IMG/VR virus record: IMGVR_UViG_3300021376_000007
DNA from: a virus
Direction: 5' to 3' (one strand)
DNA: 64,000 bases
Shown here: piece by piece, positions 16,763 to 33,377 of the stretch
How the letters are laid out: every line of letters begins with the position of its first letter
Position numbering within the stretch: the stretch's first letter is position 1
The notes under the pieces: model-generated
Told to the model about the DNA's origin: nothing
Databases searched by the model: none
What the model saw: the letters and a program-made list of their open reading frames with translations, nothing else
Translations under genes and position numbers: made by a program

Positions 16763-16920
16763 TGTGTTGACTCCGTTTGTGATTGGTTGGTTGTTTGTTG
16801 GGAACTAGTCCCTTCTTTTTAGAAGATAAGTACTAGTTTAGAAGGTTCTCGACAGATATTTTCTAGACAAGACCCAGACTAAAGGTTTAGAAGACTTTTC
16901 AATAATTATTATTCTTTCTC

Positions 16921-19413: not shown

Positions 19414-20037
19414 GGCAGACCTCCTTTCTAGACTCTCGGACGCCGTCTAGTAGCGTTTGATAGACCTAACGTCTACCATTAAAGGGAAAACCACACTGGC
19501 TGTGTGGCTCCCCCTTACTAGTGGTGGATATTGCAATCCCTGGTTATTTGCCAGGGCAGGAAAGCCGACTGGTCGACTAGAGGGTTTCGGCCTCGTCGTC
19601 GTCCAGCTCGCCCATGAGGTCAGCCAGTTCAGCCGACACCGAGAAGGATCCCTTCAAGATGTCGAGCTGCGACTCACCCTTGCTCCACACCGAGGCCTGC
19701 AGACCGTTGATGGTCTCGCCGTCCTTGATGTAGACGTTGGGCTTGACCTCGGTCACGACGAACTCGTCGCAGTTGAGGACCAGCTTCCAGTTGTTCTTCA
19801 GTGACGCCACCTTGGCCTTGGTGTAGATGGCGAGCTTCTCGGGGAAGATCTCCATCGTCACCGTGAGCCGGTCGAGGTCCGAGTCCTCCAGCCCAGTGAG
19901 GGCCTTCAGTTCGGCTCGGGGCACTCCCACGAGGACGGTGTGGAACACTCCACCGCCGTCCTTGCGGTTGTTGGCCTTGGGGACGCTGTTGATGAACAGC
20001 TTCTTCTTCATGGCAACCTCCCAGTTGTCATGTCAGG
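19380..20037. repeat. About 658-bp direct repeat, copy 1 (copy 2 at 23247-23904)
   Basis: Near-identical sequence at offset 3867; two mismatches seen. Confidence 0.95.
19577..20011 (-). CDS. Putative OB-fold/SSB-like protein, paralog 2 copy a
   Basis: GGAGG RBS; acidic tail DDDEAETL; strong codon bias. Confidence 0.6.
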   Translation of the reverse strand: MKKKLFINSVPKANNRKDGGGVFHTVLVGVPRAELKALTGLEDSDLDRLTVTMEIFPEKLAIYTKAKVASLKNNWKLVLNCDEFVVTEVKPNVYIKDGETINGLQASVWSKGESQLDILKGSFSVSAELADLMGELDDDEAETL

Positions 20038-20260
20038 TGGACTAAGTACTGCTGTGTGCGTCCACGTTAACGCAGCAGGAAACTCATCTTCAGTTACAAG
20101 TTCAGTCCATTGGACATCCCCCTAAAGCTTGACTCTCGGTCTTGTTTCAAGTAACGACCGGGCGACTCGATATTTATACAGTACAGCCAACCCTGTAGGT
20201 GATCTAGGATCTACCCATAAAGGGAAAACCGTGCTGGCTGCACGGTATCCCTGCTTTTAT

Positions 20261-20515
20261 CTAGCGGAACCTCCTGTCCCTGATGTTGTCCTCGTAGGTC
20301 TCGAGGATGTACATGGAGAACCGACGAAGCTCTTCCATGTCTGCCGTGAACTCGGAGCAGTTCTCGTCGAACATCCAGTTTCCGTAGTCAAAAAAGCCTT
20401 CTACGACCATGTTGATTGTCCAAAGGTAGTCTGCGACATTCTTCGGCATCTTCTTGCGGTTCTTGTACCGCTTCTGTTTTGCAGCTGTCGTTGCTGCCCC
20501 GTTTGTTGCTTTCAC
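20261..20515 (-). CDS. Cassette hypothetical protein
   Basis: GGAGG RBS + GTG; leader shared with 20671-20925. Confidence 0.7.
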   Translation of the reverse strand: MKATNGAATTAAKQKRYKNRKKMPKNVADYLWTINMVVEGFFDYGNWMFDENCSEFTADMEELRRFSMYILETYEDNIRDRRFR

Positions 20516-20670
20516 GTTTAACCTCCGTGAATTTGGGTCAGACCTTGTGGTCTAGTTTCTACCCATAAAGAGAAAACCACGCTGGCTGCGTGGTATCTCT
20601 TAACCAATTATCACCGATGTATAGTCGGCCTATATATAGGATGGTCAGTCCTTAGTCAAACAGAATGGCT

Positions 20671-20925
20671 TTAGGCCTTGTCGTTGCGGGACTGGATTTC
20701 GCCTGCGATCTCCAAGCACCACTGACAGGTGGGAGGAGTGTCGCTCAGGAACTCAAGGCCGTCTGCCTCTCGCCTGTGCGGCATTTCATTCCAGAACGGA
20801 GTTGGGTTGTTCAACGCACACACAAGTGCTGCGCTAGACATTCCACCTCCGTTGACGTAGTGGGTGTCGCCCATCCACGCAATCACCAGAAACATCGCTG
20901 TTTCCTTCCCGTTTGTTGCTTCCAC
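20671..20925 (-). CDS. Cassette hypothetical protein with Cys motifs
   Basis: GGAGG RBS + GTG; H..C...CQWC. Confidence 0.7.
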   Translation of the reverse strand: MEATNGKETAMFLVIAWMGDTHYVNGGGMSSAALVCALNNPTPFWNEMPHRREADGLEFLSDTPPTCQWCLEIAGEIQSRNDKA

Positions 20926-21055
20926 GTTTAACCTCCGTGAATTTGGGTCAGACCTTGTGGTCTAGTTTCTACCCATAAAGAGAAAACCACGCTGGCTGCG
21001 TGGTTCTCTTTTAACTATAAAATTAGTTATACCTATGTATTTAAAATTATTATTA

Positions 21056-21289
21056 TTATTCAAACAATGTTGGCTTGTGGTACCAAGGGCAAACTGGAGT
21101 TGGTTGTTCTTTTCTGTCGTGCGTATAGATGAACTGGTAACATGCCCAGCACAAAGTCAAAACATTGGGATGTCTTGATGTAAGTGTGTCATAGTGAAAC
21201 TCATAGTGATTATGATTCTTACATTCGTGACACTGCTTGTATCCTGAGTATTCCCAGTTACGACGGCTGTTTTTCTTGTTGTTCGACAT
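21056..21289 (-). CDS. Zn-ribbon hypothetical protein
   Basis: CHEC...CWAC; GAAAGG RBS. Confidence 0.65.
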   Translation of the reverse strand: MSNNKKNSRRNWEYSGYKQCHECKNHNHYEFHYDTLTSRHPNVLTLCWACYQFIYTHDRKEQPTPVCPWYHKPTLFE

Positions 21290-21318
21290 TTCTGTTTCCT
21301 TTCTGTCGTTTTAGTTTT

Positions 21319-23280
21319 CTAGTTGGCACCCAAGTAAGTGGAACTGACGTTGACGTCAAGTTTCTGGTTGATGAATTTGACAATTGGCTTACGGTGCTCG
21401 TCCTCAAGAGCAGCGTTGAACCTGCCCAGAAGCTGACGAAGTTGCATTGCACTTGTGATTTCGGCATGACCGATCCAATTGCCTTTACGATCCTTGAAAC
21501 CAAGGATCATTGAGGAGCCATTTACAACTATGTCTCCGTAGGTACCAATGCAATTCTCTTGCGCTGCTCCCCACTCAACCAAGTCATGAGTCTGAGTTGG
21601 AACAATTACTTGAATGTCATCGTTGATCCAGGTGCCCTGATGCTTCAAGAACTTCTTGTTGAAAACGGTGTTCTTCAGTTTTCTGTTCTCCTGCTTGATC
21701 TTTGCGTGTTCAGCAATGACATAGTCGTGAATCTCCCTAATTGTCATTGAATTGTTCTTGACGTGAGTGATGATTGCAGTGCGATGTGTCTTGTTTGTGA
21801 TCGACTTCATCGCTGAGACTACGTCCTGCATGTAACTAATCGGTGTGTACAAACGATGGGCATAACGATCAAGGTAGTATGTGTCGTCCTCTTTCGTTGG
21901 ATCCATGAGGTCATCAATGTACGCCTGCTTTGCTCCAAACATCTTGAAGAATCGCCTTGTTTCTTCTTCGGTCTTGATCATCACCAGTGGAAGTGGATGA
22001 GTCGTAATGGCAGATAGATTTGGTGGGAAATGGAGATCCAAATCAATATTGTTGAACACTGTTGAAGGAAAGTCGCGCAGAACACGAGCCCACCAGATTG
22101 CAACACGCAGTTTGACAAGCGAGTCAATGTTGTTTCGACCACCAAACATGTGCTTTGTGACACCGTTGACGCCACTCTTTCCATAGGCCTTGTTGATGAT
22201 TTCCTTGACATCCATGCAGCCACCAACCCAGTACAACAGGCTCATGTCAATCCCAAACGGGTGCAACATAGCGATGTCGAAGTTCATCCTCGTAGCAGTG
22301 ATGTACTTTGTAATCGGCAGCCAGTCTGCAACCTCAGTTGTCTGATGAAGGTACTCATAAATCCGCAGGGGAATTGGATTGGTACCTGCAGAGCGACCCA
22401 CTTTTGGAACAAGCTTCTTTCTTTCCATCATTGAGTACGATGCTCCGAAGATGAACTTCTGACCCTTCTTTCCGCGAACTCTCACCCACATGATTCTCAA
22501 GCCATCTTTGGTGCGAGTGATCATCATGGCATATGGCCACTTCTTCTTGTAGTGAGAACCAGAAGTGCTAGCTGTGTAAGTGTTGAATTCAATCAGCAGC
22601 CTGCGCTTCTGCTTTTCGTCTTGGCTTCTTCCAGTGATATCGCTGACCAGGAATTCAGTAATGTCAACAGATCCTTCACCTGTGTGCTTTTTGATCTTCG
22701 GCTGCAGGATCCTGTATGAGTACACGTATCCAGGATTGTAGTTCTCATCATCCCAGGGACAGAGAACAGTAGCTGGGGTTTGTACCCACTCGCCAGGGTG
22801 AAGACCTAGGCGGGCGGACTGCAACCGTTCACTTTTGCTTTCCAAAATGTGGCTCTCCATCTGAAACTTCTCGAAAAGGAACTCTTCAGCCAACCTTTCG
22901 ACCGCGTAGGTCTCTTTGTCAAGCTTGACTGCTTTCTTCCAATCTCGAAACGAGTACTCATCTGTTTCGGTATAAGCCTGCATTTTCTTCTCAAGCAGAT
23001 CAAATATCTGATGTGCTTTGATCCATGCAAGGACCAGTTCCATGTTTGACATTTCCTCAAATGGCTTTGTGAGGATGGACATGTCAAACTCGTACAATGA
23101 TCCATCTTTGCGTCTCATCATGTATTTCAAGGTTTTTGCTTCCCTTATGTCGTTGAATGGGTTTTGGGTGATTTCATCCATAGAAACAACCTCCTGTGTT
23201 GGTGGGATGAATATGGGGATTGGTATCGGTTCTCCATTGACCGATTGGTAGTGGGTGGATGGGACAGGGTGATCGCTCAT
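21319..23280 (-). CDS. PcfJ-like domain protein
   Basis: C-terminal IHD...IVPTQTHDLVEWGAAQENCIGTY...ILGFK pattern. Confidence 0.7.
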   Translation of the reverse strand: MSDHPVPSTHYQSVNGEPIPIPIFIPPTQEVVSMDEITQNPFNDIREAKTLKYMMRRKDGSLYEFDMSILTKPFEEMSNMELVLAWIKAHQIFDLLEKKMQAYTETDEYSFRDWKKAVKLDKETYAVERLAEEFLFEKFQMESHILESKSERLQSARLGLHPGEWVQTPATVLCPWDDENYNPGYVYSYRILQPKIKKHTGEGSVDITEFLVSDITGRSQDEKQKRRLLIEFNTYTASTSGSHYKKKWPYAMMITRTKDGLRIMWVRVRGKKGQKFIFGASYSMMERKKLVPKVGRSAGTNPIPLRIYEYLHQTTEVADWLPITKYITATRMNFDIAMLHPFGIDMSLLYWVGGCMDVKEIINKAYGKSGVNGVTKHMFGGRNNIDSLVKLRVAIWWARVLRDFPSTVFNNIDLDLHFPPNLSAITTHPLPLVMIKTEEETRRFFKMFGAKQAYIDDLMDPTKEDDTYYLDRYAHRLYTPISYMQDVVSAMKSITNKTHRTAIITHVKNNSMTIREIHDYVIAEHAKIKQENRKLKNTVFNKKFLKHQGTWINDDIQVIVPTQTHDLVEWGAAQENCIGTYGDIVVNGSSMILGFKDRKGNWIGHAEITSAMQLRQLLGRFNAALEDEHRKPIVKFINQKLDVNVSSTYLGAN

Positions 23281-23904
23281 GGCAGACCTCCTTTCTAGAC
23301 TCTCGGACGCCGTCTAGTAGCGTTTGATAGACCTAACGTCTACCATTAAAGGGAAAACCACACTGGCTGTGTGGCTCCCCCTTACTAGTGGTGGATATTG
23401 CAATCCCTGGTTATTTGCCAGGGCAGGAAAGCCGACTGGTCGACTAGAGGGTTTCGGCCTCGTCGTCGTCCAGCTCGCCCATGAGGTCAGCCAGTTCAGC
23501 CGACACCGAGAAGGATCCCTTCAAGATGTCGAGCTGCGACTCACCCTTGCTCCACACCGAGGCCTGCAGACCGTTGATGGTCTCGCCGTCCTTGATGTAG
23601 ACGTTGGGCTTGACCTCGGTCACGACGAACTCGTCGCAGTTGAGGACCAGCTTCCAGTTGTTCTTCAGTGACGCCACCTTGGCCTTGGTGTAGATGGCGA
23701 GCTTCTCGGGGAAGATCTCCATCGTCACCGTGAGCCGGTCGAGGTCCGAGTCCTCCAGCCCAGTGAGGGCCTTCAGTTCGGCTCGGGGCACTCCCACGAG
23801 GACGGTGTGGAACACTCCACCGCCGTCCTTGCGGTTGTTGGCCTTGGGGACGCTGTTGATGAACAGCTTTTTCTTCATGGCAACCTCCAAGTTGTCATGT
23901 CAGG
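23247..23904. repeat. About 658-bp direct repeat, copy 2
   Basis: Matches 19380-20037. Confidence 0.95.
23444..23878 (-). CDS. Putative OB-fold/SSB-like protein, paralog 2 copy b (identical protein)
   Basis: Same 144-aa sequence as 19577-20011. Confidence 0.6.
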   Translation of the reverse strand: MKKKLFINSVPKANNRKDGGGVFHTVLVGVPRAELKALTGLEDSDLDRLTVTMEIFPEKLAIYTKAKVASLKNNWKLVLNCDEFVVTEVKPNVYIKDGETINGLQASVWSKGESQLDILKGSFSVSAELADLMGELDDDEAETL

Positions 23905-24173
23905 CAGACATGATTGTTTAACCACAATGTGTCTACTTCACTGTGGCCTACTGATTTATGCTATGCCTCACGACACAGCCTGGTGGTAGGCACCAGGTTC
24001 CTGTCTCCTCTTTCTTAAAGACCCAGGGACCAGGTCTAGATAAGGCCTAAGGCCTACCCATAAAGGGAAAACCACACTGGCTGTGTGGCTCTCCCCTACT
24101 AATGGTGGATATTACAATCCCTGGTTATTTGCCAGGGTAGGCAGGGTTAGCTACTCCCTGAGTGGTGAGAATT

Positions 24174-24353
24174 CTAGTCCTCGAGATCGAGTTGGATGAC
24201 TAGTGGATCCTCGTCCTCGCATGCCGGGCATACGAGGTAGCTGTCTGAAGAAGTTGGCACCATATCTGCATCGCAGTGTGGAAACCAGACAACTTCACGC
24301 ATCGTCAAGCCGTGCTTGTGGCACGACTCTTCGACACGGTTCAGCTTGACCAT
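24174..24353 (-). CDS. Cassette Zn-ribbon microprotein (59 aa)
   Basis: Manual translation MVKLNRVEESCHKHG...CPACED; AAGGAGG RBS. Confidence 0.65.
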   Translation of the reverse strand: MVKLNRVEESCHKHGLTMREVVWFPHCDADMVPTSSDSYLVCPACEDEDPLVIQLDLED

Positions 24354-24449
24354 TTTTCACCTCCTTTCAAAGGTTTGAAGGCCTTGGCAACCGTCAAGCT
24401 ACCAATAAAGAGAGAACCCCTTTCGGGGCCCTCTCCGAACTGCCTTTCT

Positions 24450-24677
24450 TCAGTTCTCTTCGTTGATCATTCCGATTTCACGCAGTTCTTCGCGTGAGTA
24501 TGTGAACAGCATCCACTTGATTGCCTTTTTGACTGCTTTGTCCAAGGACATCCAATTGTGGCTGTTGATCTGGATTGATTGTGCATGAAAGAGGATTTTC
24601 TCTGCTCCAGTGAAGCCGTATTTGTGGTACAGCTTTTCCTTGATTTGAGTTTCCTTGTATTCACGTTTCAGTAACAC
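24450..24677 (-). CDS. Cassette hypothetical protein
   Basis: AAGGAG RBS; lies between two repeat copies. Confidence 0.7.
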   Translation of the reverse strand: MLLKREYKETQIKEKLYHKYGFTGAEKILFHAQSIQINSHNWMSLDKAVKKAIKWMLFTYSREELREIGMINEEN

Positions 24678-24775
24678 TATGTGCTCCTTGATTGTTTGTT
24701 GTTGGTTTTAGGCAGCCGTCAAGCTACCAATAAAGAGAGAACCCCTTTCGGGGCTCTCTCCATTGCTGCCTTTCT

Positions 24776-25195
24776 TCAGCTATTTGATGTCTTTCCTGTC
24801 ACCCAGTCCTTGGCAATTTCAATCGCCTCCTCCTTGGTGTAGCCCCTGTTGTACAGCGTTCTGTGACTGCCCAACTGGACTCCGTACTGGACTTCTGCCG
24901 AGTTCTTCTGCTTGTAGACAAGTGCCCACATGTTCGTGGGATCGGTCACTGCTCGAATTTCGGCTACGTATAACGCATCTTCGTCTATTCTGACGTTTAT
25001 TGCGATTCCGTTGATCACATCAGTGGTCATGTTGACCAGATTCAGGAGCTGTTCAGCTTCTTCTATCTGATTTCCCATGTTCCTCAGCTTTTCTGTCAGT
25101 TCGGTGTGCAACTTTCGATATGCTGCTAGCTCCTCTCTGACTTCAGCGTCGCGACCAAATAAGGTCACCACCTTGTGATTCCAGTGTATTGTCAT
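24776..25195 (-). CDS. Cassette hypothetical protein with coiled coil
   Basis: GGAGG RBS before MTIHWNHK; longer ORF-track start runs through the repeat. Confidence 0.7.
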   Translation of the reverse strand: MTIHWNHKVVTLFGRDAEVREELAAYRKLHTELTEKLRNMGNQIEEAEQLLNLVNMTTDVINGIAINVRIDEDALYVAEIRAVTDPTNMWALVYKQKNSAEVQYGVQLGSHRTLYNRGYTKEEAIEIAKDWVTGKTSNS

Positions 25196-25314
25196 GGTTT
25201 TTCCTCCATGTTCTGCCCACATCACAGCGATGTAGGACTTGGCAGCCGTCAAGCTACCCATAAAGAGAAAACCCCATTTCTGGGGTCCTCTCTCCGTTTG
25301 CCTGACCACTATGG

Positions 25315-25728
25315 TTACTTGTGGGTTTTCGGTGCCTTGGCAGGGTGTCCAGTGTGGCGGCCCATGCAGCCACCCTGTCCAGCCTTGCGGAAGCAGTACG
25401 AGCACCGACCGTCGACTTCTGCGTCGTTGATCCGTGCTTGCTTGTCCTGTTGAAGTTGGCGCAACTCCTGCACTTGCTGGTGCAACGCCTCCATCTCCTC
25501 AGCGATTACGTCAGCGTTGAGCTTCAGCATCTCTTGGAGAAAAGACTGCAGGTCTTCGAGGCCGTTGAGAGTCTGTTCCACATTCTGTGTGAACTCATCG
25601 TCTCGCGGGATCTCGTTGACCCACTTGCCGAGCTTCTGTGTCGCCTTGGGGTCATACCCCAGAATCGTCATGAAGCCAATCAAAAAGGTGACCGCCGAAA
25701 CGGCCTCCTCCATCTTCTTTTCCTTCAT
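25315..25728 (-). CDS. Cassette coiled-coil protein with C-terminal Cys/His cluster
   Basis: GAGG RBS before MKEKK; CSYC...C..H..H. Confidence 0.7.
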   Translation of the reverse strand: MKEKKMEEAVSAVTFLIGFMTILGYDPKATQKLGKWVNEIPRDDEFTQNVEQTLNGLEDLQSFLQEMLKLNADVIAEEMEALHQQVQELRQLQQDKQARINDAEVDGRCSYCFRKAGQGGCMGRHTGHPAKAPKTHK

Positions 25729-25873
25729 TGTTATACCTCTTTCGTGGTAGTCGCAATCAGGCAAACTGGGAGGCTGTCAACCTACCCATAAAAGAAAAAC
25801 CACACTGGCAGTGTGGTATTCTTTATATAACTCATTGATAATAATCAACTACTTGAGCATGTCTGACTTGAGA

Positions 25874-26086
25874 CTACTGGTCCCAGGCCTTGGCTGCCTT
25901 CACGAGGGCTTTTTTGGCGTCCAGCTCCTGCCGCAGCAGGATCTTGTACTCCTCCATGTCCTCGGGAAAGCGACACCTGAGGAACTCTCCGCGCACCTTC
26001 AAGAGGGCCACACAGGCCTCCAGCAGGTTCTTGTCGATGTCCTCGGCGTGATCGTGATTGCTCATCTCGATCTCCCCTTTCTCCAC
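25874..26086 (-). CDS. Cassette hypothetical protein
   Basis: Lies between repeat copies; start may be MSNHD. Confidence 0.65.
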   Translation of the reverse strand: MEKGEIEMSNHDHAEDIDKNLLEACVALLKVRGEFLRCRFPEDMEEYKILLRQELDAKKALVKAAKAWDQ

Positions 26087-26302
26087 AGAGTCACCTGTGG
26101 TGAGGTGCGCACACCGGGTTGGTGTACGTCTTGGTATTCAACAAGCTTCTGTGCTGGATGCACAGGGCTTGGTGTCTACCCATAAAGAGAAAACCGCACT
26201 AAAAAGCACGGTTTCTCAATCACCAATTGTGTTTCTCAATCACCAAGTATTAAGATATGTATAGGATGGTGAATCCTTGGTTCGCCCTTGCCTAAGCAAT
26301 GG

Positions 26303-26722
26303 CTACTTCGTGAACCCCTCGGTGACGTTGAAGATGTTGATCTCCATCTTGGTGATGTGCTCCTCGTTGTACATAACGACGATGTCATCACGCTGGATTT
26401 CTTTCTTCAGCCAAGCCTTAAGGCACTCAGTCACAACGTGATGAGTGATGTCCTTTGTCGGGCTCAGGAGATGAAACGGGTCGGTCTTCTCCAACTCGGA
26501 GTTATACTCACTGACTACGGTAAACGCCCAGTTAAAGCCTTTTTCAAGACCAATCAACTCGACGTCAACCCAGCGAGGGCACTCAACAGGCATGCCGTCG
26601 ACAAAATCGCGCACATGAGTGACGATCTCGTCATACAGCAGGTCAGCAGATGCCCACAGAAGCAGAGCTCCAATAGGGAGATTCATGAGAGCTTCGACAA
26701 GCCCCCAATCCTTCTCGTCCAT
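26303..26722 (-). CDS. Cassette hypothetical protein
   Basis: GAAAGGA RBS before MDEKDW. Confidence 0.7.
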   Translation of the reverse strand: MDEKDWGLVEALMNLPIGALLLWASADLLYDEIVTHVRDFVDGMPVECPRWVDVELIGLEKGFNWAFTVVSEYNSELEKTDPFHLLSPTKDITHHVVTECLKAWLKKEIQRDDIVVMYNEEHITKMEINIFNVTEGFTK

Positions 26723-26846
26723 GGTTTCCTTTCGGGTGGCCTCTACCAAGAGACTCTTAGTCTACCCATAAAGAAAGAACCCCTTTCGGGGCCCTTTCTT
26801 TGAACTGCCTTTTCAGTTCATTGCAGGAATGTTGCTTGTTCGCCCT

Positions 26847-27101
26847 TTACGGGTTGATTTTTCCGTTGGGGAACTGGACAATGTCACCAATCTCAACAGA
26901 TCCGTACTTCATTGAAATGTAGTACATTGCTGTCTCTAGGTCTCCCCAGCAATTGGTGATCACCCCATCCCACTTGGTCCAACCCTCCTGAACTGTCACG
27001 GTTGCACCGTTGCACCAGGATGTTTCCTGATGCTGGACGCATCCCTTGAATGTCCAGGAAAGGATCGCCACCAAGGTTATGGCGATGATTCCTTTCTTCA
27101 T
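26847..27101 (-). CDS. Cassette exported LysM-like protein
   Basis: Signal/anchor MKKGIIAITLVAIL, then VTVQEGWTKW...EIGDIVQFP. Confidence 0.55.
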   Translation of the reverse strand: MKKGIIAITLVAILSWTFKGCVQHQETSWCNGATVTVQEGWTKWDGVITNCWGDLETAMYYISMKYGSVEIGDIVQFPNGKINP

Positions 27102-27216
27102 GGTAGTTTCCTTCCATGTTCTGCCCACATCACAGCGATGTAGGACTTGGCAGCCGTCAAGCTACCCATAAAGAGAAAACCCCTTTCGGGGTAATCTCTC
27201 CGATTTGCTCTAGTCC

Positions 27217-27786
27217 TTAAGCAGAAGAACTCGGCAGATTGATTGCCTTGTAACGGCTAAACAGGCTGGAAATCCACCTTTCCGGCGTGTACCTAAAGGA
27301 CTGGTCCCATCCGACACACACCGACGGGCTGAAAATCTCGTGGTGCAAGTCCATGTCGCCAAATGACTTGGCATGCTCTTCCTTAATCGTCTCCCAGAGC
27401 TCAACCCTGTTCAGCTCATGCAGCCTTCCAATACGCCAACACCACTCGTGATACATGCAATCATCGTCGCTGTCGACAAACTCTCCATTTGCGTTCAACG
27501 GATACGAAAACTGTGTCCACATAAGGGTGCCCTCGTCGACCGAAAGCAACAGAGAAACTGTCACCCAGTTGCCAAGCTGCTCGTCGCCAACCTGCTTAAA
27601 GAAGCTGCCAACAACACCCAGGCTGTCCTTCTTGTCCTTCACCAACATACGGTTGGTGACGACAATGCCATTGTCCTCGAGACGAAGGATCAACCCATCG
27701 ATTCCCGGCATGTCGAGAATCTTTTGGTAGTCAGGCCTGGCCTGACTTGAGATAGAGGGGCGGATAGGGGCAAAGAAGTCGCTCAT
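27217..27786 (-). CDS. Cassette hypothetical protein
   Basis: AAGGAG RBS before MSDFF. Confidence 0.7.
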   Translation of the reverse strand: MSDFFAPIRPSISSQARPDYQKILDMPGIDGLILRLEDNGIVVTNRMLVKDKKDSLGVVGSFFKQVGDEQLGNWVTVSLLLSVDEGTLMWTQFSYPLNANGEFVDSDDDCMYHEWCWRIGRLHELNRVELWETIKEEHAKSFGDMDLHHEIFSPSVCVGWDQSFRYTPERWISSLFSRYKAINLPSSSA

Positions 27787-27906
27787 GGCGAACTCCTTTC
27801 TCCAGACTTTTTTGCGCAAGCCTGGTCGGGCGCAGGTAACCGAGTGGCTACCCATAAAGAAAAAACCTCTTTCGAGGTCTTCTCCTTTGAACAGCTTTTC
27901 TTCTGC

Positions 27907-28386
27907 TCATATATCGAATGAACGTGCATTGTGCCAATCAATCAAGTCCTCCACGTGCTGAGGCATTGCTTCAATGATTGCCGAAAAGGTTTCGTTGTAA
28001 TCATTAACGTTTTCCACCTTGTTATCAAAAGTTGTCCGCGTCGAGTCCATAGCCAAATAAACGTCGTATTCCTGATGATTCACATCAACATCAAATCGTG
28101 TTTCAATGAAATCGGTTCGAGTCGATGCCATCCACGTCAAATCAACACTAATTATAGCCTGCTCACCGTACGCAAGCTCCAACGTGACAAGAGCGCTATG
28201 AGTTGCACCAACGACATTGTCGATCACAACAACACAACCAATGACAGGAAGAATCACCTTGTTTACCACCACGGCCCTTTCAGAGATAGCGACATTGTGG
28301 TAGTCTTGAACACAATCAACAAACTGTGTCCAAGTTGGAATTTCATAGAGGCTAGCGGGGTGGATGCGGCGAGGAGTAATGTTCAT
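27907..28386 (-). CDS. Cassette hypothetical protein
   Basis: AAGGAG RBS before MNITP. Confidence 0.7.
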   Translation of the reverse strand: MNITPRRIHPASLYEIPTWTQFVDCVQDYHNVAISERAVVVNKVILPVIGCVVVIDNVVGATHSALVTLELAYGEQAIISVDLTWMASTRTDFIETRFDVDVNHQEYDVYLAMDSTRTTFDNKVENVNDYNETFSAIIEAMPQHVEDLIDWHNARSFDI

Positions 28387-28536
28387 GACATTCTCCTTTC
28401 TCCAGATTCTTGTACGCCAATCTGGTAGCGCAGATAGACAGTAGAGTCTACCCATAAAGAGAAAACCCCCCGAAGAGGGTAATCTCTAGTGTTTGTTCTG
28501 TTGCCAGGCGGTCACTACGCCCCGAGTCTTATTCAG

Positions 28537-28707
28537 TTAGTCTGTCAACTCGACGTCGGCAAAACGAGCCAAGAGAGCCCATTCCTGGTGTCTCCAAGCA
28601 TCGTCGTCCCAACGGACGAGTCTGAAGCACTCGCAACAGACATGACCGTCCCGCAGTTTGCGGAAATCGGTCAGTCCGTGCTCAGTGCACAGACCACGCT
28701 TGCCCAT
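28537..28707 (-). CDS. Cassette Zn-binding microprotein (56 aa)
   Basis: Manual translation MGKRGLCTEHG...CCEC; AAGGAGG RBS. Confidence 0.65.
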   Translation of the reverse strand: MGKRGLCTEHGLTDFRKLRDGHVCCECFRLVRWDDDAWRHQEWALLARFADVELTD

Positions 28708-28808
28708 ATTTACCTCCTTTCTGGATAGATGACCTACCTGGTCTGGGATCTACCCATAAAGAGAAAACCCCATTTCTGGGGTCCTCTCCTTTGAGCATCC
28801 TTTTTTGC

Positions 28809-29327
28809 TCAGTAGTCAGTGCCCTTCTGAAAGAGCCCTTCCACCAGGAACTCCAAGTTTTTCTCGAAGTCCTGGTCCACGATGTGGACCAGTGGCACGT
28901 TGGCGTGGAACCACATCGCACCCAGTTGCGGGTTGTACCCGATGCTGTTGTGGAGCTCCACGTACTGCCTGTAGTGCTCGGAAGGGACGAGGACGTATGC
29001 GACGAACGGGTAGCGATCACCATACTTGTCGAATCGCCATGAAATGGTTAACTCGACGAAGTAGGAGACACCGGGATCGGGCTCGCCTCGGATCAACCGA
29101 GTAGAGTAGCCGACTGGTACCATGTTGATGACGTACCTGCTGAGACGCTCCGTGGCGGATTGCGCCGCGTAGGAAACGCTGTCAGACTGGACGTTGAAGA
29201 TGGCTTGGAGCAACAAGATGAACTTGTACTCCTTCCCCGTCTTGGTTGACGAGAAGTAAAAGAACCTCTCGTCTGTCCAGTATGACAACTCCGAACGCAG
29301 GTCTTCGTCCTGCATCTGACTGTCCAT
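28809..29327 (-). CDS. Cassette hypothetical protein
   Basis: AAGGAG RBS; 172 aa. Confidence 0.75.
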   Translation of the reverse strand: MDSQMQDEDLRSELSYWTDERFFYFSSTKTGKEYKFILLLQAIFNVQSDSVSYAAQSATERLSRYVINMVPVGYSTRLIRGEPDPGVSYFVELTISWRFDKYGDRYPFVAYVLVPSEHYRQYVELHNSIGYNPQLGAMWFHANVPLVHIVDQDFEKNLEFLVEGLFQKGTDY

Positions 29328-29525
29328 TGGGATTTCTCCTTGATATGCGCACGGAGTTACCGTACGACTTGGCAGCTGTCAAACTACCCATAAAGAGAAA
29401 AGACCCATGCTGAAGGTGTGATAACGTGTATCAGAGCCTCCCTACATGGGTCTTTCTCTTTGATGGCTTCTGGTCCCAGGCTACCAATCAGGCCCGGCTT
29501 GACTTAACAGCTGTGTGCTACGTGA

Positions 29526-29699
29526 CTACTTCGGCCAGACACGGGTCACCGTGAAGAGTTCTGCGAGGTTGGCCTCGTAGTACCCACGGTTCCTGATCTG
29601 GACCCGGAGCCGTGCCTGGAGCGGGTTCTTGGCCAGCACCTTCACGGACCTCGGGTGTCCGGAGTGAGCGCACGTGTAGCGCACCTTCCAGAGGACCAT
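29526..29699 (-). CDS. Cassette basic microprotein (57 aa)
   Basis: Manual translation MVLWKVRY...; AAGGAGG RBS. Confidence 0.65.
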   Translation of the reverse strand: MVLWKVRYTCAHSGHPRSVKVLAKNPLQARLRVQIRNRGYYEANLAELFTVTRVWPK

Positions 29700-29814
29700 A
29701 TGAGGACCTCCTTTCCCCCAGTTTTTAACGCAACTGAGTTGGCGTAGGAGCCCAAGTCAATGGGCTACCCATAAAGGAAAAACGGGCGAACTTACCACCC
29801 GTTATCCTTTTGGT

Positions 29815-29967
29815 TCAGTCCTGAAGAATCTTGGCGATCACCTCTTCAAGATCGGTCCACGAAAACCATTCTTGGTCTGCGATGTTCCTCTCTTGAATTG
29901 CTTCTGCCAAGTCCTTTTGCACCTGCTCAAGGCCAGTGCGGACCTTATCCGGTAATGCCATCGGCAT
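29815..29967 (-). CDS. Cassette microprotein (about 50 aa)
   Basis: Manual translation (MP)MALPDKVRT...; AAGGAG RBS. Confidence 0.6.
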   Translation of the reverse strand: MPMALPDKVRTGLEQVQKDLAEAIQERNIADQEWFSWTDLEEVIAKILQD

Positions 29968-30095
29968 CTCCTTTGTATTGGGCCCAGACTTTCATGCCTG
30001 GGGACTACCCATAAAGAGAAAACCCCCCGAAGGGGGCTTCTCCCGTGATTGTGAGTAACAGAGGTTCACATAATCCTCCGGTCCATATTTGAGGA

Positions 30096-30296
30096 TCAGC
30101 CAAAGATCTCCGGGAGCAGCTCGATCAGCGAGTTGTCCAACTTGCGCTGGTCAACCGTGAACGCTGTGATTCCCTTCCTCTCGAGCTCGTGGATCCTGAA
30201 ACGGATGTCTTCGACTTCCGTTGCCAGCTTCACACGCTCCTCGATGGACGCGTTGGTGGGGCCCATGTCACCTCCTTTCATGGATTGTAGAGACAT
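30096..30296 (-). CDS. Cassette hypothetical protein
   Basis: Two in-frame RBS-led starts. Confidence 0.65.
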   Translation of the reverse strand: MSLQSMKGGDMGPTNASIEERVKLATEVEDIRFRIHELERKGITAFTVDQRKLDNSLIELLPEIFG

Positions 30297-30397
30297 AAAC
30301 TCTCCTCCTTTAGGCAGCCGTCAAGCTACCCATAAAGAGAAAACCCCATTTCTGGGGTCCTCTCTCCGAAGGTACCAGGCTACCTTCTACCTTTTAG

Positions 30398-30622
30398 TTA
30401 GGAGTTGAGCTTATCGTTGGCGTAGTTGATTACGCCGTCGAGACAGCTCTTCCTCTTCTCCAGTATTGCCACAGCCTCCTTCAATTGTGCTTGGCCGTAG
30501 TGGAGGAGCTCCATCAGACCCCTCACGTGGGTCATGATGGCCTCGACATTGGCGTTTGCTTTGTCGTTGTCTGTGATTGTGAGAGCGATTTCGATCTCAC
30601 GGATTTGGTTGCATTGCAGCAT
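30398..30622 (-). CDS. Cassette helical hypothetical protein
   Basis: GGAGG RBS before MLQCNQ. Confidence 0.65.
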   Translation of the reverse strand: MLQCNQIREIEIALTITDNDKANANVEAIMTHVRGLMELLHYGQAQLKEAVAILEKRKSCLDGVINYANDKLNS

Positions 30623-30754
30623 GATTCCTCCTGCTGTTGTGTTTTGTTTGTTTTGGGACAAAACACGTGCCTGGCCGTGTCCAGATAGTCGTCAGACTAC
30701 CCATAAAGAGAAAACCCCTTTCGGGGTCTCCTCCTTTGAGCATCCTTTTTCTGC

Positions 30755-31072
30755 TCAGTTGCCTTCTGCTGATTTCATGTTGATCATGCGATCAATCCAT
30801 GCTGTCGTGCAGTCTTCACAATAGTGCGGCCAGCCATTCTTTTCCTGTGTAGAAAAACGTTCCAGAGCAATGCCTGTTCCGCACTTCACACATTTAAAAA
30901 CAGTGCTGCACTTTGTGCAGGGACACTTGCTCATTGCCTCGATTTCCTCTTCGACACCCACTTTGATTGTGGGAAATCGCTCAGGATTCTTAGCAACGAT
31001 CTCAACGATCTTGTGCCAGTGTTCCAGTCTGCATTTTGGTTGTGAATGTCTGTTGGGCCCTTGGGCCCCCAT
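30755..31072 (-). CDS. Cassette Zn-finger protein
   Basis: CPCTKC...CVKC...CEDC. Confidence 0.7.
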   Translation of the reverse strand: MGAQGPNRHSQPKCRLEHWHKIVEIVAKNPERFPTIKVGVEEEIEAMSKCPCTKCSTVFKCVKCGTGIALERFSTQEKNGWPHYCEDCTTAWIDRMINMKSAEGN

Positions 31073-31259
31073 GACAATCTCCCTTCATGTTGGGTCTGGA
31101 CTACCAAGTCCAGAGACTACCCATAAAAGAAGAACGCCCGCATACGAGACGGGCCGCCCTTCAATACCCTTGATTGTTCAGCTTCTTTTTTTTCGCTTAC
31201 TTAAACTTCTGGTGCCAGGCCAAGGATATGGCCCCGATCCAATTCAGTTGACGATCAAC

Positions 31260-31442
31260 TCACCTGTTGTTCCTGGTGAACCATCTGGATCCGAAGAACC
31301 CTATGGCCACAGCAACACCAAGCCAGTTCACCAGGCCGAATATCGCTTGCACGATAGCTCCGGCCCAGCTCACCGCTGGAGTCAAAAGAAGAATGGCCAC
31401 GAGGACCAACTCCCAGTGCTCCGCGAGGAACGCCTTGATTTG
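31260..31442 (-). CDS. Cassette small membrane protein
   Basis: AAGGAGG RBS + TTG; two hydrophobic helices. Confidence 0.65.
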   Translation of the reverse strand, partial: QIKAFLAEHWELVLVAILLLTPAVSWAGAIVQAIFGLVNWLGVAVAIGFFGSRWFTRNNR

Positions 31443-31537
31443 GTTCAATTCACCTCCTTTCACAAAGGTAAATGAAGGAAGTCGTCAGACTACCCATAAA
31501 GAGAAAACCCCTTTCGGGGTCTTCTCTCCGATTTGCT

Positions 31538-31702
31538 CTAGTTCTTGTCCTTCTTGTCAGCTTCTTGGAGCCACTCTTCCTTGCACTCGACCGAGCAGTA
31601 CCCCGATAGGTAGTAGTCGAAATGATTATAGTGTTGCCCACAATGGATGCACTGTGGACCGTTGTTGTTGTTAGGATGCTCATCCTGATTTAACCGCATC
31701 AT
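31538..31702 (-). CDS. First cassette: Zn-finger microprotein (54 aa)
   Basis: Manual translation MMRLNQDEHP...CIHCG...YCSVEC; stops just before the hairpin of the next element. Confidence 0.65.
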   Translation of the reverse strand: MMRLNQDEHPNNNNGPQCIHCGQHYNHFDYYLSGYCSVECKEEWLQEADKKDKN

Positions 31703-32183
31703 ATTGTTTACCTTCTTTCTTTAGGCAGTTTGGTGTGCGTGAGTAACCGAGTGGCTACCCATAAAAAAAAGACAACAATAAGAGGGTATGGGGGGGTGGG
31801 CTCGTTAAAGTAAACCATACAAATACAACTTAACTATTACCCGCTCATAAATTTTCCTTATTTTTTTAACTCTTAAGATTTTTATACACCTTTATAGAGC
31901 TACGAAAATTTTTCCTATAAATTTCCCACAACAAGTTGCCAAATCGAAAAACCTTGTGATAACGTATGCTCACTTTGTCGGAAAAGCCGGCGAACATACA
32001 AACAGAAAGAATCACTGAAATGACAAACATTATTGATCCAGAAAATTTTAATTTGGAATCATACGAAGAGATAGATCAATACCTCGGTCAATACACAAAG
32101 ACAGAATATGATATGTTCAGACCAGCCTACAATGACGTCGATTTTGACATGGACAACTACGGATACGACTACTGATACCCATC

Positions 32184-32735
32184 ATGGCCACCATAAACAC
32201 CATGCCAAACAACATATTGGTAGGATCAGAGAAATTGTTCAGATCCAAGAATCCTTGGAGAATAAATTCATCATTGATAGGACTACTGTCACCTGGTCAT
32301 AACTTATTATTATTTAATACCAATAATAGAGATGACTTTGATAGAAAAAAGACGCAAAGATTGGCCACTGTACTGTATGACAATTGTCAGGTCTCACATG
32401 GTAATGTGATATTCATGGGATTGGAAAATGAATGTAGAATGGGTGTTGATTTACAGTTCAAGTATGGATATGATTTTGACTGCATGGTTCTTGTCAATAA
32501 TCCCTATGATGAGGCAATGTATGAAAATTTATCGGAGCGTACTTTATTGTATAATTTCTATACTAATTCAAATGGTTTTGATTTGGCCGGCGCTCACATC
32601 AATCAAAAGATTAAAACTGTACTTCCGGCACAAATGTCAAAAAGATTTGCTCTTGAGATGTATGGATGTTTGTTGTACGACACTTACGGCCAGAATTGCT
32701 TTGATGATGTGTACGGACCTATAAAATATGTTTAA
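32184..32735 (+). CDS. Hypothetical protein
   Basis: 183-aa ORF after the strand switch. Confidence 0.65.
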   Translation: MATINTMPNNILVGSEKLFRSKNPWRINSSLIGLLSPGHNLLLFNTNNRDDFDRKKTQRLATVLYDNCQVSHGNVIFMGLENECRMGVDLQFKYGYDFDCMVLVNNPYDEAMYENLSERTLLYNFYTNSNGFDLAGAHINQKIKTVLPAQMSKRFALEMYGCLLYDTYGQNCFDDVYGPIKYV

Positions 32736-33016
32736 TTAAAGTCATCGGGGTTTATGGTGAACACGTTTGGAATTTCCGTGGCCAATGATCTGACGACGGT
32801 TTCTTGATCATCACCATTTAGTGCACAGATGTCGTTGACCATATCCCATTGTTCCTTGGAGAAGACGGCTAGAGTGATCTGGCCGTCTTCTTCTGAGTAT
32901 GCGGTCAAGACACTGTCTTGAATTTCTCCTTGAGAATCAAAATCAAATATTCCATTTTGGATGTCTATTCTGTCTGATTCCAAAATTTTTTTTATCAGAT
33001 CGAGAAAAAAATTCAT
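32732..33016 (-). CDS. Acidic hypothetical protein
   Basis: AAGGA RBS; TTACTATA motif upstream at 33129-33136. Confidence 0.6.
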   Translation of the reverse strand: MNFFLDLIKKILESDRIDIQNGIFDFDSQGEIQDSVLTAYSEEDGQITLAVFSKEQWDMVNDICALNGDDQETVVRSLATEIPNVFTINPDDFN

Positions 33017-33137
33017 ATTATAAGTCCTTATTCCTCTGTTTAAAAAAAATAAAAACCGAAAAAAATTGCGCGCGTTTTGCGTTTGGCAAAAAGCTAGATC
33101 TTTTTCAGCTCAATTATTTTCATGTAGTTATAGTAAC

Positions 33138-33377
33138 TCAATCATCTGAATACAAATACAATTCATCTCTTAAATCATCTAAAGCTTCTTGAACTTTCAG
33201 CAATCTGTACTCCATCTTCTCAATAAACTCTTCTGATGGTTTAAGGTCAAAAGATACTCTTAGTTTTACCGGAATTGAATCGCTTTTTTCTTTTCTAGAT
33301 TGAAAATTAAAGACGTTGTTTTTTTGTGTGTAATTTTCGTATTTTTTATAAAAGTTTTTTAGGTCTTCTTCATTCAT
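33138..33377 (-). CDS. Hypothetical protein
   Basis: GAGGAG RBS. Confidence 0.6.
   Translation of the reverse strand: MNEEDLKNFYKKYENYTQKNNVFNFQSRKEKSDSIPVKLRVSFDLKPSEEFIEKMEYRLLKVQEALDDLRDELYLYSDD

Follow-up and report, generated by a model that had tools for sequence, protein, structure and literature searches.

The question raised by this locus is what cuts the small-gene stretch of ~12 kb in an uncultured ~200-kb lake phage into about two dozen units. In the window (the whole stretch of DNA that was analysed, 64,000 nt), 24 copies of a TTTATGGGTAG-type core were found between 19473 and 31765, all of them at gene starts and on the minus strand, which is the coding strand here (Table 1). 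Within 20211-31765, the minus strand carries all 22 copies that match TTTATGGGTAG with at most one mismatch, against a chance level from shuffles of 1.02 on average and 4 at most under the same threshold; the remaining two, at 19473 and 23340, carry the variant TTTAATGGTAG. The original prediction of 24 hairpin and core elements on the minus strand is thus confirmed in its count, with 24 copies against about one by chance.

In 22 of the 24 copies, the core is followed by a leader of 29-110 nt, a strong Shine-Dalgarno sequence and an open reading frame, and the two longer leaders (~160-200 nt) both stand ahead of a duplicated 144-aa gene. The cassettes mostly contain a single gene of no known function, in agreement with the earlier description of short leaders, strong ribosome-binding sites and mostly one gene per cassette. 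The outermost copy (31755-31765) lies within a 200-nt gap and adjoins a divergent plus-strand open reading frame at 31966; as had been predicted, it keeps the T-run and the core and has no upstream hairpin. The 830-aa gene of paralog B is found directly downstream of copy 19473, where the prediction had placed it.

Table 1. Coordinates of the elements and associated features in the window.
Feature	Coordinates	Strand	Description
Element 1, outermost	31741..31765	-	T-run + TTTATGGGTAG + leader hairpin; upstream hairpin absent
Element 2	31477..31529	-	hairpin (GAAA loop) + core 31490-31500 + leader hairpin
Element 3	31092..31162	-	hairpin + core 31117-31127 + leader hairpin
Element 4	30683..30736	-	hairpin (GAAA) + core 30697-30707
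Element 5	30312..30367	-	hairpin + core 30326-30336
Element 6	29980..30044	-	hairpin (UUCG) + core 30005-30015
Element 7	29746..29810	-	hairpin + core 29765-29775
Element 8	29371..29406	-	weak hairpin (-8.7 kcal/mol) + core 29384-29394
Element 9	28723..28791	-	hairpin + core 28750-28760
Element 10	28432..28487	-	hairpin (UUCG) + core 28448-28458
Element 11	27834..27887	-	hairpin (GAAA) + core 27848-27858
Element 12	27149..27201	-	hairpin (GAAA) + core 27162-27172
Element 13	26734..26800	-	hairpin (GAAA, several G.U pairs) + core 26762-26772
Element 14	26176..26217	-	hairpin + core 26176-26186
Element 15	25768..25824	-	hairpin + core 25782-25792
Element 16	25241..25295	-	hairpin + core 25254-25264
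Element 17	24711..24761	-	hairpin (GAAA) + variant core TTTATTGGTAG 24724-24734; one end of X22 deletion
Element 18	24385..24436	-	hairpin (GAAA) + variant core TTTATTGGTAG 24399-24409; other end of X22 deletion
Element 19	24038..24097	-	hairpin + core 24054-24064; long leader to 144-aa gene copy 2
Element 20	23325..23383	-	hairpin + variant core TTTAATGGTAG 23340-23350; upstream of PcfJ-like gene, within duplicated block
Element 21	20945..21009	-	hairpin + core 20969-20979
Element 22	20535..20601	-	hairpin + core 20559-20569
Element 23	20197..20252	-	hairpin + core 20211-20221; long leader to 144-aa gene copy 1
Element 24	19458..19516	-	hairpin + variant core TTTAATGGTAG 19473-19483; directly upstream of 830-aa polymerase candidate gene
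Duplicated cassette, ~658 nt	copy 1 19380..20037; copy 2 23247..23904	-	144-aa gene + element + first 11 codons of next gene
Paralog B, 830 aa	16921..19413	-	single-chain two-barrel RNA polymerase candidate; last array gene
Paralog A, 853 aa	3009..5570	-	second two-barrel RNA polymerase candidate; class II motif ahead
PcfJ-like protein, 653 aa	21319..23280	-	inside array; first 11 codons common to 830-aa ORF via duplication
First class II motif AAAAAGAAGGG	16809..16819	-	~100 nt past stop of 830-aa gene
Further AAAAAGAAGGG copies	ends 16249, 14472, 10779, 5604

A strong hairpin (-14.5 to -29 kcal/mol) stands directly 5' of the core in 22 of the 24 window copies, with GAAA or AGAAAU loops in ten and UUCG loops in two. 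For the hairpin statistics, the window and its relatives provided 161 unique copies, 151 of which have the hairpin within 0-3 nt of the core (mean, 15.6 pairs); the commonest loops among these 151 are UUCG (34) and GAAA (22). The upstream hairpin belongs to the sense-strand RNA. G.U pairs make up 347 of the 2352 pairs (~15%), the sense RNA folds at -23.1 kcal/mol against -16.7 kcal/mol for the antisense and is the better of the two in 142 of 151 hairpins, and at stem positions -8 to -13 the pair types vary on both sides, with A-U exchanging with G-C in the U-rich arm. These compensatory changes bear out the prediction that stem sequences vary while pairing is kept and, together with the G.U pairs, the loops and the sense-strand folding, support a hairpin that acts at the RNA level in a terminator-like manner. 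The hairpin indeed looks like an intrinsic terminator: a GC-rich stem-loop with a U-rich tract directly behind it is found in 22 of the 24 copies in the window and in 151 of the 161 unique ones, GGGGUUUUCUCUUUAU is the sequence of the 3' arm and tail, and terminator-like sites in the array region number 44 where 15 were expected. Hairpin and core are separable, since the first copy keeps its T-run and core without a hairpin in the window and in its homologs in two relatives (G001 and G004); in the internal copies that lack a hairpin, the T-run is even longer. An N4-type promoter, in which the hairpin would form in template-strand DNA, was rejected because the opposite strand forms the hairpin less stably and because the core is kept in copies without one.

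In the position table of the elements, the conserved part consists of the T-run and TATGGGTAG only. As predicted, no sigma70-type -35/-10 pair is present at any element, such pairs numbering 9 between 16000 and 33000 against 15 expected, and neither an extended -10 nor a sigma54-like spacing is conserved in the elements. A search of the element 18-mer against 185,579 prokaryote genomes returned single chance-level matches only and no arrays. In relatives of 133-210 kb, the motif occurs only in one array of 4-11 kb that ends at the B gene, its matches elsewhere in these genomes being at control level. A core that is a phage-specific signal, and not one of the sigma70 type, is supported by this pattern of one array per complete or near-complete relative. 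The proposed co-occurrence of the element with GGxDxDD proteins in related phages was also searched for, and polymerase homologs are present on 8 of the 9 element-bearing viral contigs, the ninth being a fragment estimated to be 17% complete. Relatives with ~43% identity in B keep the architecture with TTTGAGGATAG as the core, and those with ~37% identity have yet another repeated motif.

GGGUAG opens a second hairpin at its first or second G in 146 of the 161 copies, and pairing involves at least five of its six bases in 66% of copies, compared with 32% among shuffled controls; the baseline for this hairpin is high, in that 70% of shuffled controls likewise pair at the first G. The usual place of GGGUAG as the 5' arm of the second hairpin suggests an RNA 5' end at TAT/GGG (the slash marks the putative end), which fits the start that had been predicted there, and GGGUAG could be recognised in RNA rather than DNA. 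Among the sequencing runs listed for this sequence, none was an RNA run. Such an end might also be made by RNA processing: a long early transcript would run from one or a few upstream promoters, and an endoribonuclease of the host or the phage would cut the short UUUAU linker that joins the two hairpins, leaving a 3' hairpin on the upstream mRNA and a 5' GGGUAG hairpin on the downstream mRNA, much as RNase III processes the junctions of T7 early genes. Both hairpins point to selection on the sense-strand RNA, only about 2-5 unpaired bases separate them, as protected ends would require, the conserved core could serve as an RNA recognition sequence, and the T7 early region is likewise laid out with its polymerase gene last. 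Nevertheless, we consider processing quite unlikely. A GC stem with a U-rich run directly after it is the signature of an intrinsic terminator, and 23 terminator-like sites in series would block a long transcript; the T-run and core persist in copies that lack the hairpin, among them the first copy of three genomes, upstream of which there is nothing to trim; RNase III cleaves within stems rather than at a single-stranded conserved core; within the array, no gene was recognised as encoding a ribonuclease, and the cassette proteins that were scanned gave no significant match in Pfam or PHROG.

The core is most likely a promoter recognised by one of the two candidate single-chain RNA polymerases that the phage itself encodes. 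The GGxDxDD motif is invariant in 40 of 40 aligned sequences and has no G between the last two Asp residues. For B (AF2 model, pLDDT 87) the top Foldseek matches were QDE-1/RDR2 (QDE-1, E 3e-6, probability 1.0), with weaker ones to the phage gp64 RNAP 8f72 (E 0.024) and crAss gp66 6vr4 (E 0.24), and for A (pLDDT 83.6) they were QDE-1 (E 2e-8) and 8f72 (E 5e-5), the TM-scores of the polymerase fold matches being only about 0.4. A and B thus both model as QDE-1/gp64-type two-barrel RNA polymerases, which supports the earlier proposal of GGxDxDD proteins as polymerase candidates. Alignment of A with the B family by hhalign (probability 100, E 2e-96) indicates full-length paralogs, and for neither was a sequence match to any named family detectable. 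B has 118 homologs, on contigs of up to 207 kb, and A was found in four of the four relatives searched. The 653-aa array protein was rejected as a polymerase, being PcfJ-like (PF14284); the second paralog is the 853-aa ORF.

Beyond the B gene, a second motif class (AAAAAGAAGGG) sets in within about 100-250 nt of the B stop, on the coding strand only, and a copy lies 30-35 nt upstream of the A start in five of five genomes. This wiring is conserved, the 830-aa gene being always last behind the array and the 853-aa gene always behind AAAAAGAAGGG, and it speaks against the 830-aa enzyme being the first to read the promoter class from which its own gene would be expressed. More in keeping with it is a reader that exists beforehand, which could be the host polymerase or, if virions contain it, the 853-aa paralog.

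The reading that we prefer, with a probability of roughly 0.6, is that of composite terminator-promoter cassettes whose core is recognised by a phage polymerase already present, as part of a cascade, for which we infer promoter function, start site, early timing and the assignment of enzymes to motif classes as follows. The hairpin, with its GC-rich top and U-rich 3' arm, would end transcription of the upstream gene as a terminator of the intrinsic type and protect the 3' end of its mRNA, and the invariant T-run with TAT/GGGTAG would be a promoter of a non-sigma70 type. Transcription would probably start at the first G of GGG, and because of this start each mRNA would carry a 5'-terminal GGGUAG stem-loop, from which a short leader runs to a strong ribosome-binding site and a single gene. 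The array would be the first-expressed module of the ~200-kb freshwater phage, with B encoded last. The reader of the array core (class I) would have to be present at infection and would most likely be A, brought in by the virion; class II, which starts right after the B gene and would drive gene A, would in turn be read by B, closing the loop from vRNAP to nvRNAP to vRNAP as in phiKZ and P23-45. Counting against this cascade are the lack of a virion-protein fusion in A, beside which the genes have no known function, the layout resembling that of the host-read T7 region, and the high baseline of the second hairpin.

The same terminator-promoter cassettes might instead be read by the host RNA polymerase, through an unusual host sigma or an injected phage factor, in the order host, class I, B, class II, A and late genes. 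This would follow the logic of T7, where the host transcribes the early region and the gene for the phage polymerase comes last in it, and it would give each of three motif classes its own reader with no packaged enzyme required. Bacterial polymerases obey intrinsic-type terminators, and the class I core varies among phage clades, as might be expected from differing hosts. We regard a host reader as unlikely, however, given the missing -35/-10, extended -10 and sigma54-like features, the count of 0 of 185,579 prokaryote genomes with 18-mer arrays, conservation that extends from +1 to +6 as in phage-polymerase promoters, and a TATG+1 form that matches the phiKZ phage-polymerase promoter (PMC7598289).

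The array also varies by whole cassettes. The unitig depth of the duplicated cassette is about 2x, and one contig from run X22 joins 24390 to 24716, removing exactly one cassette (325 nt) with 39 nt shared at the junction; a one-cassette insertion/deletion variant thus exists in the population. Cassettes of this kind could be captured and shuffled at site-specific recombination sites similar to the attC of integrons, which would fit the single-gene cassettes flanked by imperfect hairpins that vary in sequence and have a conserved core, as well as the deletion and the duplication. Yet no integrase was found in or beside the array or among the large ORFs of the window, the sole mobile-element-like gene being a weak transposase-type PHROG match ~13 kb away. 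Homologous recombination between repeats is what the 39 nt common to the junction lead one to expect, and with repeated elements it would duplicate or delete whole cassettes. In addition, the G.U pairs and strand asymmetry indicate RNA, every element is the 5' control region of a gene, with leader and ribosome-binding site, and the core sequence is unrelated to attC, making such sites a very improbable explanation.

Several known systems share parts of this organization. YonO of the Bacillus prophage SPbeta (Forrest et al., 2017, PMC5467207) is, as A and B would be, a phage RNA polymerase made of one chain and akin to the two-barrel catalytic core. It serves a single late operon, which has one start site and an undefined promoter. 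A and B differ in that they form a pair and carry DxDD, in place of DxDGD, in the putative catalytic loop. Hairpin termination by bacterial polymerases involves a flap domain that enzymes of the YonO type do not have (PMC5467207), and termination by such an enzyme at the hairpins described here is therefore assumed. In P23-45, the virion polymerase, fused to the tape-measure protein, transcribes the pre-early genes including that of the non-virion polymerase, the two enzymes have separate motif classes, and a conserved motif of 26 nt is present in the terminators (Chaban et al., 2024, PMC10770324). P23-45, phiKZ and AR9 resemble our phage in having two paralogous two-barrel polymerases (candidates here), one encoded among the first-transcribed genes (a timing that would apply here by our reading), and two distinct motif classes arranged in succession on the genome, of which the first is rich in T and A immediately ahead of the start; the TAT/G seen here has the same form as the phiKZ late promoters, T(-3)ATG(+1) (PMC7598289). 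In contrast, the enzymes here are free-standing, of ~840 aa and closer to QDE-1 than to gp64, the terminators look like ordinary intrinsic ones, and the enzymes of phiKZ and AR9 are multisubunit.

The T7 early region, with its polymerase gene last, is read by the host polymerase. Our array is similar in that the polymerase candidate gene ends the putative early block, the next motif class follows just after it, hairpins lie between the genes, and transcripts would begin with GGG and a 5' stem-loop. It differs in that the T7 polymerase is of a single-subunit family with no relation to the enzymes here, three host promoters jointly serve the T7 early genes, between which lie RNase III sites and not terminator and promoter units, and the T7 promoter is a specific 23-bp sequence and not a T-run.

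The promoter-early stem-loops (PeSLs) of T4-type phages (Arbiol et al., 2010, PMC2839356; Comeau et al., 2014, PMC4122927) had been named as a loose precedent; their promoters fit the sigma70 consensus of E. coli, and it is the host polymerase that transcribes from them. The relevance of PeSLs stands, but the likeness is closer than loose, as they are the same kind of composite element: small terminator/promoter units, with the promoter here a putative one, repeated before individual genes that have no known function, in an early region that is plastic, with G.T pairs in the stem-loops and a Shine-Dalgarno sequence and start codon at the element's end. Recombination between PeSLs inserts, deletes and duplicates cassettes, and the 325-nt deletion and 658-nt duplication are the counterpart here. 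The present elements differ in having no -35/-10 pair and conserving the T-run with TAT/GGGTAG, in lying all in one array where PeSLs occupy several scattered regions, and in belonging to a phage that also encodes two candidate two-barrel RNA polymerases. Since they share no sequence homology with PeSLs, they are an analog of that class and not a member of it.

In the array, the class I element (an upstream hairpin, a T-run and the TATGGGTAG core) probably combines a terminator with a promoter that is not of the sigma70 type, a reading to which we assign a probability of roughly 60%. The core TTTATGGGTAG, with one mismatch at most, was found 22 times, always on the minus strand, while shuffled sequences gave 1.02 copies expected and a maximum of 4; two further copies that read TTTAATGGTAG bring the total to 24 (see table). 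In 22 copies located by script the core is followed by a leader of 29–110 nt, a strong Shine-Dalgarno sequence and an ORF, and the remaining two have leaders of about 160–200 nt ahead of a duplicated 144-aa gene. The distance from a stop codon to the next element is 37–130 nt in most cassettes, and directly 5′ of the core there are 22 strong hairpins, one weak hairpin, and none at the outermost copy, which lies within a 200-nt gap opposite a divergent plus-strand ORF. A consensus scan of the region gave 9 sigma70-type sites vs. 15 expected, none of them at the elements, and 44 terminator-like sites vs. 15 expected. The original prediction had described 24 copies, their hairpins, the hairpin-less outermost copy and the lack of sigma70-type sites at the elements, and this description was accurate. 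Rfam at gathering scores gave no family for the elements, and Pfam and PHROG searches with the ten largest cassette proteins returned nothing significant, only weak sub-threshold matches. Just 5′ of the first, hairpin-less element, a TTTAACGAG(C/G)CCACC sequence followed by a C-run is present in three genomes, the window and the related loci L053 (~1100–1150) and L055 (~1080–1135), and it may be part of the array start.

Pooling the window with related loci gave 161 unique element copies. Since stem and loop lengths vary, an alignment made with MAFFT and RNAalifold missed the hairpin, and each copy was instead folded on its own with the core as anchor. A hairpin with a mean of 15.6 pairs ends 0–3 nt from the core, or overlaps its first Ts, in 151/161 copies; its commonest loops are UUCG (34) and GAAA (22), and G.U accounts for 347 of the 2352 pairs. 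The gene-sense RNA folds better than its complement in 142 of the 151 copies (−23.1 vs. −16.7 kcal/mol). In the pair table of copies anchored on the core, stem positions −8 to −13 show five or six pair types, and in the U-rich arm T-A and C-G pairs are near equal in number with few mismatches. These varied pair types, few mismatches and better sense-strand fold demonstrate that the pairing is under selection at the RNA level on the sense strand, in agreement with the earlier proposal that the hairpin acts as RNA. The top of the hairpin is GC-rich and is directly followed by UUUUCUCUUUAU, with which a purine run upstream is able to pair; by its shape it is a predicted intrinsic terminator.

Conservation starts about 13 nt upstream of the G-run, continues to the end of TAG and falls off after it. 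In the leader, GGGUAG supplies the 5′ arm of a second hairpin, which begins at the first G in 116/161 copies and at the second G in 30/161. The start is paired in 91% of copies vs. 70% when the downstream sequence is shuffled, at least five of the six GGGUAG bases are paired in 66% vs. 32%, and the energy is −11.5 vs. −7.0 kcal/mol; the signal is thus real but moderate. It suggests, from RNA structure, a 5′ end between TAT and GGG, so that the start originally predicted at this point gains from the position of the second hairpin at the first or second G in 146/161 copies but is limited by the 70% of shuffled controls that are also paired. Several other readings of these sequences were dropped: a leaderless mini-ORF from the core ATG, as a variant core has no ATG; a sigma54-type −24/−12 promoter, as its downstream part lacks conservation; a −35 box of the SPO1 gp28 type within the purine arm, as this arm covaries with the 3′ arm and is not conserved; and a lambda nut-like boxB, as the loops vary.

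The hairpin is absent from the first array copy not only in the window but also in the related phage genomes G001 and G004, in which the sequence upstream of that copy is homologous too, and several internal copies in relatives lack it and have an even longer T-run. Because hairpin-less copies keep the core, hairpin and core are separable parts, which is predicted if the element gives the upstream gene a terminator and the downstream gene a promoter, and is not needed for a cleavage site. We therefore consider it unlikely that a long transcript is processed between two hairpins: such processing fits the RNA-level selection, but 23 terminator-shaped hairpins in series are hard to reconcile with it, as are the hairpin-less copies.

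Each of four related genomes of 133–210 kb has the motif in just one array of 4–11 kb, on one strand, that ends at the homolog of the 830-aa gene, and one-mismatch matches outside the array are at the level of a reversed-pattern control. The core is unchanged in loci with 45–58% identity in the 830-aa protein. At about 43% identity the whole architecture is kept (purine run, GC stem, T-run, second hairpin and ribosome-binding site) with TTTGAGGATAG as the core, and at about 37% another repeated motif is found; across clades, the class I cores are of the TTTATGGGTAG, TTTGAGGATAG and GTCGTTAAAC types. In one locus of about 37% identity (L037, 3832–5416) the repeated unit GACCTrGryAyGTCGTTAAACTG stands ahead of small genes, and it suggests that promoter class and phage lineage may change together. 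An exact 17-mer was matched in nine viral contigs, eight of which carry polymerase homologs, the ninth being a fragment estimated to be 17% complete, and both polymerase genes are present in 4/4 relatives searched; the co-occurrence of the element with GGxDxDD polymerases, earlier put forward as a check in related phages, was thus observed. When 185,579 prokaryote genomes were scanned for an 18-mer, 15 single matches came up, as chance predicts, with no arrays and no pointer to a host. Taken together, the confinement of the motif, its co-occurrence with the polymerases and the chance-level prokaryote matches argue that class I elements are phage-specific and accompany the polymerases. Searches for Sigma70_r2 and Sigma70_r4 in the four related phage genomes found nothing above cut-off. 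Reading of class I by the host polymerase would follow the logic of T7 and would require no packaged enzyme, but it appears rather unlikely given that the element is without known bacterial promoter features and that bacterial genomes hold no element arrays.

Table. Positions of regulatory motifs, polymerase genes and other features in the window
Feature	Position	Strand	Remark
Class I core TTTATGGGTAG, ≤1 mismatch	20211–31765	−	22 copies
Class I copies TTTAATGGTAG	19473, 23340	−	
Class I copy with weak hairpin	29394	−	
Outermost class I copy	31755–31765	−	
TTTAACGAG(C/G)CCACC, then C-run	31770–31810		
Paralog B (830 aa)	16921–19413	−	last array gene
Paralog A (853 aa)	3009–5570	−	
Class II motif AAAAAGAAGGG	16818, 16249, 14472, 10779, 5604	−	first copy ~100 nt after 830-aa gene stop
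TTACTATA	34913, 36425, 53743 (+); 33129 (−)	+/−	shortly upstream of structural/late genes on plus strand
TACTATA variants of TTACTATA	50.9 kb, 34.6 kb		
Near-exact block, ~658 nt	19380–20037, 23247–23904		
Possible tRNA-like fragment	12799–12871	−	
255-aa ORF	6152–6919	−	

One point of the original description stands corrected: the array contains a 653-aa protein that is PcfJ-like (PF14284), and it is paralog A that is the second GGxDxDD protein. The AlphaFold model of paralog B, a confident one (pLDDT 87, pTM 0.84), matched the structures of QDE-1 and RDR2 (E 3e-6, probability 1.0) and, more weakly, the P23-45-type gp64 polymerase (E 0.024), the crAss-like gp66 (E 0.24) and E. coli beta-prime, and the model of paralog A (pLDDT 83.6) gave the same matches with E 2e-8. 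An hhalign comparison aligned the two families over 721 columns (probability 100, E 2e-96), the GGxDxDD motif does not vary in the family alignment, and A is more conserved than B (65–75% vs. 45–58%), while Pfam, PHROGs and PDB sequence searches with both polymerases gave no match. The earlier label "YonO-like" is acceptable for the fold class, but it is not a statement of YonO family membership. Some homologs of the 830-aa protein (P0107 and P0110–P0113) are about 1400 aa long, and among these are fusions with a helicase (PF13086/PF05970/PF13604) or PF08719 domain, that is, polymerase-helicase fusions in related phages. To our knowledge, only in very few systems have the promoters and terminators of single-chain two-barrel RNA polymerases from phages been worked out, and we know of no defined promoter for YonO.

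The class II motif AAAAAGAAGGG occurs on the coding strand only, and two of its window copies read AAAAGAAAGGCA. In relatives it begins about 100–250 nt after the stop of the B homolog (L017, L020, L024 and L031), it is unchanged in a clade with a different class I core, and in 5/5 genomes (the relatives being L046–L049) it lies 30–35 nt upstream of the 853-aa gene start codon; it is a candidate middle promoter class. Plus-strand structural genes are preceded by TTACTATA-like sequences; TTACTATA resembles a −10 box, though alone it is barely above chance (4 vs. 1.5 expected). Since class I and class II occupy the same positions across genomes, the wiring is conserved, with class I ahead of, and predicted to drive, B and class II likewise A.

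A polymerase cannot be the first to read the sole promoter class that drives its own gene, so the class I reader must be present at infection. The chances that this reader is a phage polymerase are about even, and by analogy it is possible, if doubtful, that it is specifically paralog A. Tentatively, class I would then be the promoter of A, a QDE-1-like single-chain RNA polymerase delivered in the virion, and AAAAAGAAGGG the promoter of B. Packaged A would read class I and B would be made; B would read class II, and A would be made for the next virions, which is the simplest closed loop, from A through class I, B and class II back to A. In phiKZ and P23-45 the first genes, that of the non-virion enzyme among them, are read by the virion polymerase, and the motifs differ for each enzyme (PMC7598289, PMC10770324). 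The phiKZ late promoter is T(−3)ATG(+1), the same TATG form as in the class I core with its predicted start at G (PMC7598289).

The array is also a site of cassette gain and loss. In a variant contig from lake sample X22, position 24390 is joined to 24716 with exactly one 325-nt cassette (a 75-aa gene) gone, which represents gain or loss between adjacent elements at the population level. The junction shares 39 nt, and this homology, together with the lack of an integrase, makes integron-like recombination sites a very improbable explanation for the elements. A block of about 658 nt is present twice, near-exactly and at about twofold unitig depth; within it are the 144-aa gene, the element 3′ of that gene and the opening 11 codons of the gene that follows, and it is due to this duplication that the PcfJ-like and 830-aa ORFs begin alike (MSDHPVPSTHY). 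Because residues 1–39 of the 830-aa protein are disordered in the model and missing from homologs, its true start may be a Met near residue 41. In a second adjacent cassette pair the element, leader and first codons are common and the gene body is not. Deletion and duplication of cassettes are by-products of the repeated elements, a behavior described for the promoter-early stem-loops (PeSLs) of T4-type phages, in which a sigma70 promoter and a terminator form one composite element that mediates the shuffling of modules (PMC2839356, PMC4122927).

The genes for a terminase, portal, major head protein and tail fiber identify the window as part of a tailed phage, and RecA/UvsX-like and ClpX-like genes are also present. 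A sequencing-run search found the same DNA in at least 24 metagenome runs from lake water, with no RNA run among those listed; contigs with homologs of the 830-aa protein reach 207 kb, and the relatives of 202 and 210 kb, which have terminal repeats, are classed as complete. Neither megablast with the array nor tblastn with the 1206-aa protein matched the phage collection, literature searches found no description of the motif or the phage group, and a search with the core sequence returned unrelated primers only. The GC content is about 50% in the 12–32 kb block and about 35% in its flanks; an assembly chimera was dropped as the cause, as a 6.4-kb contig bridges the upper junction (31493–33400) and in relatives GC rises likewise over these genes. 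In the presumed temporal order, GC at third codon positions (GC3) falls from 0.63 in the array (16921–31702) to 0.41 in the next minus-strand genes (369–14026) and 0.26 in the plus-strand structural genes (34943–62885), and in-frame CGG codons number 17, 3 and 1, respectively. On the minus-strand side, a 73-nt Rfam tmRNA match (47.3 bits vs. a gathering score of 47), in which ARAGORN found neither tRNA nor tmRNA, may be a tRNA-like fragment, and the 255-aa ORF, the sole mobile-element-like gene there, has a weak PHROG match to the transposase family phrog_4285 (E 2e-14) and none in Pfam.

One genome supplies 24 natural copies, relatives supply more than 150, and TTTGAGGATAG is a natural variant core. 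Together the elements provide a ready-made consensus with natural mutations, and as both enzymes are small and expressible, motif copies are testable in vitro. The practical interest lies in testable promoters and terminators predicted for polymerases of a class that has been little studied. Provided that the elements function in the proposed way, each would amount to a compact, insulated unit of expression, about 60 nt long, with a terminator, a promoter and a 5′ stabilizer. For an abundant group of lake phages that are uncultured, the elements also map out the temporal classes. Should the reading of class I by A and of class II by B be true, a promoter and terminator grammar would for the first time be defined in a large, uncultured clade of freshwater phages of about 200 kb, and these would run a largely host-independent loop of early and middle transcription coupled to a steep early-to-late gradient in codon usage. 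The array also carries the concept behind PeSLs, namely that regulatory cassettes serve at the same time as linkers for the recombination that shuffles genes, past the T4-type phages and past promoters of the host type. The array is a functional analog of the T4-type PeSLs and not a member, as the sigma70 sites that characterize PeSLs were looked for here and not found at the elements. Likewise, it can be likened in function to the P23-45- and phiKZ-type cascades without being a member of them: those phages have tape-measure fusion or multisubunit enzymes, whereas the proteins here are free-standing and QDE-1-like. By analogy, then, the array would be, in function, a PeSL analog combined with a polymerase cascade of the P23-45 or phiKZ type.
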